DNA of 63,868 bases, counting the filler, from Octopus bimaculoides (lineage: Eukaryota), in NCBI RefSeq assembly GCF_001194135.2. It is 7 parts of 7 records of this genome, joined end to end, with 100 filler letters (N's around TTAATTAATTAA, not from the genome) between each part and the next. Parts side by side here need not be neighbours in the genome. Positions count along the whole stretch, not along the records: positions 1 to 13,197 come from NC_068984.1; positions 13,298 to 20,601 come from NC_068986.1; positions 20,702 to 28,661 come from NC_068983.1; positions 28,762 to 53,782 come from NC_069008.1; positions 53,883 to 59,535 come from NW_026361056.1; positions 59,636 to 62,427 come from NC_068988.1; positions 62,528 to 63,868 come from NC_068981.1. One strand, written 5' to 3'. The position numbers and the translations under genes were made by a program. A model generated the notes under the pieces. That model did not search any database, was not told where the DNA came from, and was given only the letters and a program-made list of their open reading frames with translations. This document shows, one piece after another, positions 1 through 63,432 of this stretch (positions are counted from its first letter, which is position 1; every line of letters begins with the position of its first letter).

Positions 1-1654
1 ATATATATATATATATATATATATATATATATATATATATATATATAGAGAGAGAGAGAGAGAGAGAGAGAGAGAGAGACGAAACAGACTCGAAGGTGCT
101 GTTCTGTATGATTAAGAGATTAACACTTATATTATGCAGTAAAATCGATGAAAAGAATATAGTGTACTTGTCATAAAGAGTATAAAATCCAACGTTTTGC
201 ACACCCAGTCCTTCTTCAACGGGAAAGTTGAATGGGATAGAAATTAATGGAAGACAACAGGGTTAAACATCCTCCAAGTTGCAAAATCAATGTGAGAAAC
301 AGTGTAATAAGAAAGGAGGAAGTAAAGAAAGGAGGCATAGCAGGTAAAATGGAAAGAAACAAATTCAGAACAAAATTATTCTCACTCTTGAGTTTATATT
401 ATGGAAGTACGCGCGCGCGCGCACACGCACACACACACACACACACACACACACACACACACACACACATGCACACACAGCCTCACACATGCACACATGC
501 ATGCACATACATACACAAACACACACACACACACCATACCTTTGTCTCTCTTGTTCTGTTTATACATACATACAAAAAATCATAGAGATAGACGGGAGCG
601 AGTGTGTGTAGCTCTCTCTCTCTCTCTCTCTCTCTCTCTCTGTATATATATATATATATCTCGTGAATTTATTTATTATTTTTCTATGTGCGACTGTGGA
701 TTTTCATGGATTAGTTCATGAAATTTGGTTCTTTTCTCTAAAACTATATATTTATATTTCGTACTGTGATACTTAATTTAATTTTAATTTTTAATAAATT
801 GAATTTAATTGAGTTTTTACCTGTAAGTTTGGTTTTTTATCCCAAATATTATTATATATATACACACACACACATGCACACACACACACACGCACACACG
901 CACACACACACACACATATATATATATATATATATATATACACACACACACACACACACGCACAAACACACATACNNNNNNNNNNNNNNNNNNNNNNNNN
1001 NNNNNNNNNNNNNNNNNNNNNNNNNNNNNNNNNNNNNNNNNNNNNNNNNNNNNNNNNNNNNNNNNNNNNNNNNNNNNNNNNNNNNNNNNNNNNNNNNNNN
1101 NNNNNNNNNNNNNNNNNNNNNNNNNNNNNNNNNNNNNNNNNNNNNNNNNNNNNNNNNNNNNNNNNNNNNNNNNNNNNNNNNNNNNNNNNNNNNNNNNNNN
1201 NNNNNNNNNNNNNNNNNNNNNNNNNNNNNNNNNNNNNNNNNNNNNNNNNNNNNNNNNNNNNNNNNNNNNNNNNNNNNNNNNNNNNNNNNNNNNNNNNNNN
1301 NNNNNNNNNNNNNNNNNNNNNNNNNNNNNNNNNNNNNNNNNNNNNNNNNNNNNNNNNNNNNNNNNNNNNNNNNNNNNNNNNNNNNNNNNNNNNNNNNNNN
1401 NNNNNNNNNNNNNNNNNNNNNNNNNNNNNNNNNNNNNNNNNNNNNNNNNNNNNNNNNNNNNNNNNNNNNNNNNNNNNNNNNNNNNNNNNNNNNNNNNNNN
1501 NNNNNNNNNNNNNNNNNNNNNNNNNNNNNNNNNNNNNNNNNNNNNNNNNNNNNNNNNNNNNNNNNNNNNNNNNNNNNNNNNNNNNNNNNNNNNATATATA
1601 GGAGGCCAAAAGTGTACGTACGCCACTATATGTATATATATAAAAAAATAAAAC

Positions 1655-1955
1655 AAAAAATGGAACAAGACTGTAACAGAGGACACAACAAAACATCCGG
1701 ACAGTTAGACGATGCAAAAAAGGACAGGAAAAAACAAAGCCGGGTCATTCGGAGCTTTCTATCTTCAGCCGAGTTCCAGATTGTCATTGCAGTTTTGGCC
1801 GGTTACACTCGAGACTGCTCTAATCTGACCAGCCCCAAGAAAATCTGAGCTAAGAGCACTAGATTCTTTGGAAGAAAGCAAGCGAATATATACGAAATCA
1901 AGGACGTCGTTTGCTTTCTTCCACGACGGAAAAAGAATTACAGAAGTTGTAAACA
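1655..1955 (-). repeat. Dispersed repeat (possibly Penelope-type terminal repeat), homologous to 63436-63700
   Basis: Shared blocks with 63436-63700: cggaca/cggacg-gttagacgat, aaggacagg.aaaacaa, ggtcattcg, ct.atctaagagca.taga..ctttg.aagaaagc.agcgaat. Confidence 0.6.
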
Positions 1956-2411
1956 AAAACCTTTTTTACTATCTTCATTTCTCCCTTGTTTTTCTCCCTC
2001 TTAACTTAGTATGACGGAACCTTTGGTGTTCCACGTTTTTTATCGATCACTTCTAATACTATTGAATTTTGTACAATTAAACAAGATGATCCACATTTTT
2101 TTTAAATTTTTGAATGTTGTGAACATTTCAATCATATTTGATATTATTGAAACTTGCAAACATTGAATCTTTTAAACATGTTTTTNNNNNNNNNNNNNNN
2201 NNNNNNNNNNNNNNNNNNNNNNNNNNNNNNNNNNNNNNNNNNNNNNNNNNNNNNNNNNNNNNNNNNNNNNNNNNNNNNNNNNNNNNNNNNNNNNNNNNNN
2301 NNNNNNNNNNNNNNNNNNNNNNNNNNNNNNNNNNNNNNNNNNNNNNNNNNNNNNNNNNNNNNNNNNNNNNNNNNNNNNNNNNNNNNNNNNNNNNNNNNNN
2401 NNNNNNNNNNN

Positions 2412-2758
2412 AGGATCGCGGTTTCGATTCCCAGATCGAGCGTTGTGAGTGTTTATTGAGCGAAAACACCTAAAGATCCACGAGGCTCCGGTAGGGGATG
2501 GTGGCGAACACTGCTGTACTCTTTCACCACAACTTTCTCTCACTCTTACTTCCTGTTTCTGTTGTGCCTGTAATTCAAAGGGTCAGCCTTGTCACACTGT
2601 GTCACGCTGAATATCCCCGAGAACTACGTTAAGGGTACACGTGTCTGTGGAGTGCTCAGCCACTTGCACGTTAATTTCACGAGCAGGCTGTTCCGTTGAT
2701 CGGATCAACTGGAACCCTCGACGTCGTAAGCGACGGAGTGCCAACAACAACAACAACA
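2412..2758 (+). mobile_element. tRNA-derived SINE with (CAA)n tail (5' end in a gap)
   Basis: Starts with a B-box-like ggtttcgattccc. The central block gtaattcaaagggtcagccttgtcac...gttaatttcacgagcagg also occurs at 34955-35135 and 35450-35545. Ends in caacaacaacaac. Confidence 0.75.
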
Positions 2759-3420
2759 CATGGTGATAAAAATATACTTCCAATGTTAAACGTCATAGGA
2801 AAAGTAACAATTACATATCTATCTATCTCCCTCTCCTTTCATCCTCCTCCTCCTCCTCTCTCTCTCTCCATCTCTCTATACATATAATGCTGCTTCTGGG
2901 GTATCCCAAGTCATAGGCTAGCATCTCCATACACTGGGTATTCCGTAATCACAGACAAAGTGAGTATGTATGAAAGTTCTAGACAGGAAGATTCACAGTT
3001 TATAAGGAATAAAATAGTAGATAGAAGAATAAAGAGTAAAAGAGTAGATAGAATACAGACAGGAGAATAAAGTTAACAGCTCATCTTCTTGCAGAGGGTA
3101 TGGAGGTTGGTCCATACTTCCGTGAAGATATAGGCCCTTAGGTATAATCACAGGTAAATCCAGGCAGTACTTTGGCAGTATTTTGAATGTTGCGTTCATG
3201 TTGAAGGAATGAATTAAGTGGTTCAAGTGGTTTAAGTGTAACCACTTGAGATACTCGTCCTGCTTTGGTTTTTGTTGTCCTTTTTCTTCTAATAAAATAT
3301 ATACCTGCAAACTCGGGAGCCTAATACGGATCCCTAGCTCCAGCCTCAACTGTGAACTTGAAACCTAACGGATGACCAATTAAAGCACTTAGCGTACCTA
3401 TTCGTATAGATCACCATATA

Positions 3421-61602: not shown

Positions 61603-61939
61603 ATGTTGAACCAGCAAGGGGAAGCTGCTGACCTCCCCTGTTCGAAGATTGTAATGGACACAGGGTTGTGTGTCCATTAGCTAGCTAGAGGCGATGGCCT
61701 CTTGAAGCTAATAAACGGCAGCATTCGTCCTATTTTCCCGGGACTGCCATGTTAGCTTGGCGATAACTATTAATATCCAGTACTGCTGTCGTAGTTTTCT
61801 TTAGACACACTTAGAAATACTAATATTTCTCTTTATGTATACAATCCTATATAAAGTCAACTAACAATTAAAGATGGAGAGATGTTAAAAGTTTTGTAAA
61901 ATTTTAATCCATGTATACGATCGTTTCAAATGATGACAC

Positions 61940-62121
61940 CAACTACTACTACTACTACTACTACTACTACTACTACTACTACTACTACTAATAATAATAA
62001 TAATAATAATAATAATAATAATAATAATAATAATAATAATAATAATAATGATGATGATAATAATAATAATAATAATAATAATAATAATAATAATAATAAT
62101 AATAATAATAACAACAACAAC
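61940..62121. repeat. (ACT)n/(AAT)n microsatellite
   Basis: Direct reading. Confidence 0.95.
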
Positions 62122-62427
62122 CTGTTTCCAGAAGAGCAGAAGGGATGCTGCAAGGGCTCATACGGCTGTAAAGACCAATTATTGATCAATAAAGCCATAA
62201 CTGAAAACAGCCACAGAAAGAAGAAAGGCTTCAGGATGGCCTGGGTGGACTACCAAAAGGCTTTCGACAGTGTTCCCCACACGTGGATTCTGGAAACACT
62301 AGCCATAAACAAGGTGGCACCAATTATTATAAAATACATAAGGCACTCAATGAACAAATGGCAGACAGTGCTACAGCTCCAAACAAAAGAGGGACTTGTG
62401 AAAACGAAAGCATTAGAAGAGGAATAT
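62122..62427 (+). mobile_element. R4/Dong-like RT N-terminal fragment starting directly after (AAT)n
   Basis: LFPEEQKGCCKGSYGCKDQLLINKAITEN...MAWVDYQKAFDSVPHTWIL. Confidence 0.9.
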
Positions 62428-63249
62428 NNNNNNNNNNNNNNNNNNNNNNNNNNNNNNNNNNNNNNNNNNNNTTAATTAATTAANNNNNNNNNNNNNNNNN
62501 NNNNNNNNNNNNNNNNNNNNNNNNNNNATATATGATAAGAATTCTATGAGCGTGTTTAATTGTAACAACTAAGAGTCAGGTATCAAAAGGGTCAGTTATA
62601 TTTATAAAGATAATTCCATTTCGAACCAAACATGATATATGTTACTAACTGAAATGGAATAACTGTGAAAACTGGGTAAATGTGTACTTTTGTACAATGA
62701 TATGACGTAAATACGCTGTCAGTTCAATTGATGGCAGTGGACACGATCGTGTTGATAGACCATAAAGTCACGATAGCGTATATTTTTGTGCAATATGGCG
62801 TCTTAATGGTATCAATTGAATTTATGGTTGTAATCACGATAGGCCATAGATACATCATAAAGTGGTGATTTAAACGAACATTTACAAAGAAAAATAAAAC
62901 AAACAATATACATAAAAATGCTCTTCCTTCTTATCCTTCACATTCGCACCATTTATAGTAATGGTCTTCAAGTTTCGTTTATAACTTTTTGCCTTTTTCT
63001 GTTCTAATCTTTTATTTTGTTTATTCATTTATTTATTTATTGTCATGCTTTACGAGATCATGGTATGAAAATATAGTTTAACCTAAAAACTGGTTGTATA
63101 TTTATGAAAAAGATGGAAATACAGGAATTTGGATATTTTTTTCTATTCCTACTGTAATTAGTATAAGTGTCATAAATGCATAGAATAATAAGAAGGTACA
63201 AATACCTAAACTAAAGTTTACAAATATGAACCATAATTAAAAAGGTGTG

Positions 63250-63432
63250 TGTCTGTGTCTGTATATGTGAGTTATTTTCTCTCCTTGTTTCTTTCTGTGT
63301 CCCTTTCTGTAGAAGAGCGTAGGCTCGAAACGTTAAAGACTTTTTCACTTCCCGAGCGTTAAACTAAGACATCTGTTTGTTGTCTACACCACCTGTCTTC
63401 GTCTTTTCTTTTCTTTGTGAATTTTCATATAT
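63250..63432 (+). repeat. Penelope-type terminal repeat copy carrying the minimal hammerhead-like motif
   Basis: Homologous to 59335-59535 (reverse complement) and 47585-47695. Confidence 0.75.
63303..63338 (+). ncRNA. Minimal hammerhead-like motif (U6 plus extra A variant) in a Penelope-type terminal repeat
   Basis: CUUU CUGUAGA A GAGC-GUAG-GCUC GAAAC GU U AAAG. Helix I and helix II are each 4 bp, with a minimal helix III (ACGU palindrome). Confidence 0.5.

Follow-up and report, generated by a model that had tools for sequence, protein, structure and literature searches.

Type I hammerhead-shaped motifs at the probable ends of unrelated repeats in Octopus bimaculoides DNA, including a repeat family with U at core position 6

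What are several sequences shaped like type I hammerhead ribozymes doing in one stretch of octopus DNA: do they belong to mobile elements, to a host gene or to chance? The window, as we call the whole stretch analysed here, is 63,868 nt from Octopus bimaculoides (assembly GCF_001194135.2), made of seven parts of seven records joined with filler, and holds 57.9 kb of called bases after subtraction of 6002 N. An initial annotation had placed seven such motifs and a half motif in it, and the coordinates and strands of all eight stretches are correct. We consider it likely that the motifs lie at the ends of at least four unrelated repeats, namely worn Penelope-like terminal repeats and non-coding derivatives of them, inserted one by one in a probable intron of a gene for a GRL101-type G protein-coupled receptor (GPCR), with the copies present predicted to be inert and one family, C, carrying U at core position 6 (U6). 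This reading builds on core boxes, helices, a palindromic helix III, family membership, a neighbouring open reading frame (ORF) relic and the tandem and inverted layout of family B, all of which are seen in the window.

Rfam gave no hammerhead match in the window at gathering score, and with E up to 10 the hammerhead family was absent from the best 150 of 208 rows; for this reason, log-odds scoring was adopted, with a model of the hammerhead core boxes and helices run on both strands and a reporting cut-off of 10 bits. The scan returned 55 matches at or above the cut-off, the first six of which are motifs of the initial annotation, whereas the seventh motif, at 188-225, was not recovered:

61123-61163, minus strand: rank 1, 33.1 bits; family B; core intact (U3:A8), helix III a 6-nt palindrome, helix II with a single mismatch, H17 at 61128
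61562-61602, plus strand (sense to GRL101): rank 2, 28.0 bits; family B; C3/A8 and A10.1/C11.1 mismatches, H17 at 61597
63303-63338, plus strand: rank 3, 26.2 bits; family C, equal to the family majority; U6 at 63310, H17 at 63334
39401-39460, minus strand: rank 4, 24.4 bits; motif A; canonical core boxes, 4-bp helix II, imperfect helices I and III, two possible cleavage registers
52552-52607, minus strand: rank 5, 23.6 bits; motif D; C4, an A inserted before G12, long helix II, a mismatch in helix I and a 4-bp, near-palindromic helix III; (TA)n follows at 149 nt
59427-59462, minus strand: rank 6, 23.4 bits; family C; U6 at 59455, N7 at 59454, H17 at 59431
188-225, minus strand: motif E, below 10 bits; palindromic helix III-like end; (TA)n follows at 145 nt

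At or above 22 bits, six matches were observed against a mean of 0.17 (maximum 1) across 60 dinucleotide shuffles, and rank 7 drops to 19.5 bits. The model was drafted with the motifs already in view and tolerates two of their peculiarities, the additional A in 52552 and the length of helix III in 39401; both of these motifs are thus favoured in score. With fixed descriptors, the motif count is strongly threshold-dependent: a strict form gave one match against none in 40 shuffles, a form permitting one core deviation gave two against 0.07, a looser form gave eight against 3.45 (three of the 40 shuffles attain eight) and the loosest gave 178 against 174.6 in ten shuffles. A chance origin of all the motifs, as matches that arise in AT-rich and repetitive DNA, would agree with the loosest count, with the empty Rfam search and with unremarkable folding z-scores for the seven motifs (-1.16 to +1.13), by which stability alone lends no support; folding energies are no better than those of shuffles, which is expected where helix III is almost absent, and the hammerhead shape was not obtained in monomer folds. 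The six high-scoring matches, the family-wide variation pattern of family C (see below) and the long helix I and palindrome found in both family B copies speak against it; chance is already refuted for families B and C, and as a general account we hold it to be very improbable.

The motifs group into scaffolds B (61123 and 61562), C (59427, 63303 and the half motif at 47585), A (39401), D (52552) and a doubtful E (188), and blastn gave no significant link between scaffolds, in agreement with the four or more scaffolds of the initial annotation. The six motifs that rise above shuffles have the type I helix order, a core closed by helices I and II, A15.1-U16.1 and H17. The full core, C3-U4-G5-A6-N7-G8-A9 and G12-A13-A14 with a paired 3:8, is present in 39401 and, as U3:A8, in 61123, and is departed from in 61562 (C3/A8), in 59427 and 63303 (U6), in 52552 (C4) and in 188 (A12 and an insertion). 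An extra base stands between positions 9 and 10.1 in C and D; G10.1-C11.1 is present in C and, without the extra base, in motifs A and 61123. Helix III is palindromic over 4 nt in C and 6 nt in both B copies, with a near-palindrome in D, which bears out the proposal that helix III is of the dimer type. The cores had also been called non-standard: U3:A8 and the extra base after A9 are, like the palindromic helix III, published for Penelope-like minimal type I hammerheads (PMC4209133), and it is U6 that is unusual.

Three pieces of the U6 family lie in the window:

59333-59523, minus strand: family C copy with motif 59427-59462
63272-63434, plus strand: family C solo 3' piece with motif 63303-63338; (TA)n 93 nt downstream
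47585-47696, plus strand: family C piece truncated inside helix II, with half motif 47585-47599 and C at position 17, then (TA)n

The copies at 59427 and 63303 are 89.7% identical, the 47585 piece is 78% identical to 63324-63434, and a private change at 15.2 (59434) disrupts the palindrome of the 59427 copy. Variation within the family was read from contigs of four public runs mapped to 59325-59535 (211 bases) at 80% likeness, which distant A6 relatives would escape. Family C is clearly very abundant, with 14403, 13180 and 10291 contigs in the runs of three organisms (their summed depth is no copy number); run X15, guessed as RNA, has 825 and is not counted as expression. A search of public runs found part of the family in 22 of the 24 runs listed, none with half of its words and none of them listed as an RNA run. 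Among the rows listed, which are all but nine, variation of at least 4% is confined to five positions of the 36-nt motif: N7 (G 34-53%, U 21-31%, A 4-33%, C 12-13%), H17 (A 34-78%, U 22-57%, C 0.1-9.5%, with no G), 15.2 (C 86-94%, U 6-13%), 16.2 (G 92-97%, A 3-8%), plus the final pair in helix I (variants up to 8%). No alternative letter is listed at U6 or at the other core bases in the 10291-14403 contigs per DNA run of the three organisms, and U6 is a family-wide trait of family C. In three of the four runs, two other places account fully for the plus-strand A>T tally, which puts A6 below 4% there; in X3, one change is unaccounted for. Four bases at N7 and A, U or C at H17, together with a fixed U6, make up the freedom pattern of a hammerhead core. 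Loose ends of the contigs show (TA)n at the 3' end and a family that extends upstream of about 59523; a 16-letter motif upstream in family C has no match in the window. An imperfect palindrome of 144 bp (87.5%) lies at 47361-47504, 80 bp upstream of the half motif.

Family C may alternatively be catalytically dead, either because A6U arose once in a spreading master copy or because the fold was kept for protein binding; this is a genuine possibility, though not the outcome we expect, and a dead or shape-only spread has a parallel in the hammerhead-free Naiads. Such a history sits poorly with N7 as the only four-letter site listed for the 211 bases and with an H17 that varies without G next to invariant neighbours. 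N7 and H17 are the two most variable of the 36 motif sites, a result with a chance of 0.0016, or of 0.033 if any of seven unpaired non-core sites counts. It also sits poorly with U6 in both terminal repeats and the inverted piece of one metagenome element, L043/L044 (see below). By analogy with known hammerheads we lean slightly towards measurable, predictably slow cleavage by family C dimers. A further-reaching proposal is put forward tentatively: octopus would possess a working U6 hammerhead in tens of thousands of copies or more, cutting in dimeric form, with a metal preference that may be altered as it is in A6C, and missed by descriptors in which A6 is fixed, and U6 would recur in other Penelope-like families such as that of L043/L044.

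The family C pattern had no match in metagenome contigs; a general pattern scan of these contigs for the U6 form alone gave at least 117 loci. Among the loci listed, 25 of 117 have a helix I of at least three and a helix II of at least four pairs, and after collapse to 86 families ten pass this helix test against 0.65 in permutations (maximum 5 in 5000), which argues for real hammerheads among the U6 loci. Many of the matches are mutated A6 copies. In the largest family (13 loci, with the design of the published Acropora row) U6 was rejected as a family trait, as the second copies present in five loci are all A6 and the U6 is therefore a copy-level change; nor were the hits at large accepted as U6 families, three passing loci lying in a long open frame and two having 66% GC, which are possible chance matches. 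The 117 listed loci had no match to 120 Penelope-like proteins at E 1e-3. L043/L044, an unrelated element, is a single 3025-bp contig with identical U6 motifs 2.7 kb apart and U6 also in an inverted piece (L043:1-582, L044:1-377); as read from the two ends of the contig, an ORF start follows the first motif and an ORF end precedes the second, and by contig coordinates the two share one frame. Its ends received no Pfam name, and the protein clusters were unnamed eukaryotic ones, with GIY-YIG only as a 17% lead at 0.90; L043/L044 is a probable full Penelope-like element with U6 at both terminal repeats. In L003, L052, L078, L089 and L055, from several data sets, alike U6 motifs have helices II that differ yet remain paired, and these possibly form a second U6 family. 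At L087:200-335, five tandem 19-nt repeats of the hammerhead 5' half (A6) run into a complete U6 motif.

Family B, which holds the two top-ranked motifs, was delimited by repeat comparison:

61266-61832, plus strand: 361-bp non-coding unit (61266-61626) and a 208-bp partial second copy, 90% identical
61098-61265, minus strand: inverted partial copy of the unit, abutting the endonuclease part of the relic at 59636-61096

The locus comprises 1.6 units and the inverted piece, with both unit junctions present and a single motif on each strand; the long helix I and the 6-nt palindrome are common to both motifs. Judged from its DNA, family B appears to be a retrozyme-like tandem, that is, a non-coding unit, a few hundred bases long, that holds a type I motif, and a partial tandem with an inverted copy is a layout known for Penelope-like insertions (PMC8557442). 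A 21-bp duplication (61045-61065 and 61076-61096) occurs where the inverted piece joins the endonuclease relic, directly past the GIY-YIG motif.

The neighbouring relic is that of a coding Penelope-like element:

59636-61096, plus strand: relic of a Penelope-like ORF, broken by stops and frameshifts, in which the C-terminus of an endonuclease joins a reverse transcriptase (RT)-GIY-YIG piece

It is matched by 120 of 120 RT and GIY-YIG homologues (best E 7.7e-87), with the alignment spanning both parts, and the homologues have PF00078 followed by PF01541 with a CX4CxxC linker. This cysteine linker, taken without a tree, points to the Neptune/Nematis type. The motifs at 59427, 61123 and 61562 flank the relic and none lies in sense after its stop codon; only these three of the seven are so placed, where most had been described as lying beside Penelope ORF relics. 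A small RT scrap is present at 28985-29083. A protein search seeded with a short RT piece gave no match. A second, distinct Penelope-like endonuclease relic lies at 31558-32310 (plus strand), with no hammerhead scored behind it; its protein-cluster leads are eukaryotic clusters in which 11-27% of members have GIY-YIG.

Motifs A, D and E are less secure. Motif A lies within a longer element identified by repeat comparison:

39252-39542: 291-bp element with 51-bp inverted arms (92% identical)

Its helices I and III fit poorly in both registers, and both 39401 and 52552 are possible chance matches. The motif at 188-225 needs a 2-nt insertion, an A at G12 and a helix II mismatch; it is doubtful as a heavily decayed minimal hammerhead and likely a chance match. 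The distance to a downstream (TA)n is 93-149 nt for motifs D, E and 63303 and for the half copy, a proximity seen at 11% of sampled positions. That three of five scaffolds are near (TA)n has a p of about 0.012 by hand calculation, and (TA)n proximity therefore gives modest support for D and E as decayed element ends. A long RT-like frame (52613-53830, minus strand; L1/Tx1-like by eye) ends just upstream of motif D on the same strand.

Could the motifs instead serve the host? The strand setting is given by a single coding feature:

20961-21159, plus strand: internal exon coding for about residues 707-772 of a 1122-residue GRL101-type GPCR, with AG/GT borders

The exon is identical to Octopus sinensis GRL101 at 67 of 67 residues and 92.5% identical to the Argonauta protein, and it makes the plus strand the sense strand. 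No further GRL101 exon was found in the 57.9 kb of called bases, and the hammerhead motifs are therefore probably intronic relative to GRL101. Under the proposal that sense-strand copies cut GRL101 pre-mRNA during transcription, this position would be expected, as would the sense orientation of 63303 and its identity with the family C majority. Five of the seven motifs are antisense, however, and the sense pair consists of 61562, mismatched at two key pairs, and 63303, which has a helix III of only 2 bp and no full same-strand partner in the window, its sole same-strand relative being the half copy 15.7 kb upstream. In published work, monomers of such hammerheads show no cleavage (PMC4209133), and eight of nine published Xenopus dimers were also inactive. 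Of the N in the window, 2415 lie on the upstream side of the exon and 3587 on its downstream side. With five motifs antisense, one sense copy damaged, the other partnerless and the Xenopus dimers mostly inactive, cutting of host pre-mRNA is unlikely, and a dedicated host device scarcely to be expected.

For decayed ends of Penelope-like elements, the reading we prefer, published work suggests how active parents would have behaved. Two motifs on one tandem transcript would pair via the palindrome, each cutting the other after NUH, and the unit-length RNA would be copied back into the genome, often into (TA)n, by a Penelope-like RT and GIY-YIG nuclease. Family C would follow the same cycle with U6, predictably slowly. 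The copies in the window are for the most part solo, cut short or mutated, and our prediction is that they are inert passengers.

Several points weigh against this account. Motifs A, D and E each occur once in the window. The 59427 motif and the adjacent relic are on opposite strands and separated by an assembly gap, no 3' untranslated region with a motif was found after the relic's stop, and family C is not tied to an ORF; no tandem joint was seen among the family C contigs over the 211 bases. Those contigs are collapsed, favour the reference letter and give unphased letters, and variants may be undercounted in the longest exact stretch (59435-59453), outside which U6 lies. As to activity, published dimers cut weakly, those of the Xenopus set mostly did not cut, and changes at position 6 reduce activity, A6C cutting at <0.1 per min (PMC3088659; PMC7151607).

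Other repeats in the window include stretches at 55917 (plus), 45888 (minus), 28195 (plus) and 57736 (minus) that score 13-19 bits, with a U3:A8 box, GUAA for GAAA and a poor helix II; they are probably a single abundant repeat resembling short interspersed elements, their hammerhead likeness being probably due to chance. Two frames at 41909-42916 (minus strand) look by eye like a hAT-type transposase relic and were not named by Pfam. A tandem array at 56336-56593 has 12.9 copies of a 20-bp unit (93%), and 51244-51579 is a two-copy repeat of 175 bp. An AT-only 12-letter spacer between equal N runs, at 59580-59591 and other gaps, is likely an assembly linker.

How do these motifs compare with known systems? 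A set of this kind is expected biology: the minimal hammerheads (min-HHR) of Penelope-like elements number about 4000 in coelacanth and 9000 in Xenopus (PMC4209133), Acropora has more than 6000 such motifs in 16 families, and 235 hammerhead matches are on the published list for giant squid. The window had been described as unusually dense; with thousands per genome published for other animals, a strict count of one in 58 kb does not point to a special cluster. For O. vulgaris, 31 Penelope-like families with recent activity are published, and two octopus repeat papers contain no mention of hammerheads. The origin of the motifs in several Penelope-type or retrozyme families, with an octopus as host, is supported. 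The min-HHR lie in pseudo-long terminal repeats and depend on a second copy for a helix III formed by the palindrome; in the genome, most are solo remnants (Cervera and De la Pena, 2014, PMC4209133). The window motifs share with them the type I order, the short helix I, the extra base after A9, G10.1-C11.1, the palindromic 15.2/16.2, the U3:A8 variant and mostly solo, dispersed copies in many families; some min-HHR even form opposite-strand pairs 100-700 bp apart, as do 61123 and 61562. Cephalopods are absent from the 56 rows of Fig. S3 of that work, whereas the present motifs come from octopus. Diminished stem III, Penelope association and dimer cleavage likewise characterize the variants of Lunse, Weinberg and Breaker (2017; as cited in PMC6765202 and PMC7761336), which the window motifs resemble in the first two traits and in their dimer type.

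Family B is closest to the non-LTR retrozymes, non-coding tandem units of about 300 nt and Penelope origin with a long helix I and a type I motif (Cervera and de la Pena, 2020, PMC7229834; Li et al., bioRxiv 10.64898/2026.07.22.740005). Its 361-nt unit is within their size range; it differs from them in having 1.6 units and an inverted piece, one motif per strand and a U3:A8 core.

Family C has the architecture of the published min-HHR consensus and of the Acropora Neptune row, U6 excepted: A6 is present in 56 of 56 rows of Fig. S3, and the descriptor used there fixed the core boxes (PMC4209133). A natural U6 or A6U hammerhead was not found in literature text, the supplements of PMC3088659 included, a coverage that extends neither to picture figures nor to the set of Lunse et al. 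(2017). The element is of a known kind and its U6 is probably a new core variant which, if it cleaves, would be a new natural hammerhead; a family-wide U6 core would broaden the natural hammerhead consensus, and standard searches would undercount the ribozymes of animal genomes. With N7 free, G17 avoided and A6 given up, family C offers a directly assayable test of what maintains Penelope-type hammerheads, cutting or shape. In phage Bcep176, an A6C hammerhead that is slow in Mg2+ but works better in Mn2+ (Perreault, 2011, PMC3088659; PMC7151607) is the nearest natural precedent, and it likewise has a pyrimidine at position 6 in an otherwise intact core. It is, however, a single phage example with C and full helices, whereas in family C a U is the norm, in an animal repeat that is very abundant and has a helix III of the dimer type.

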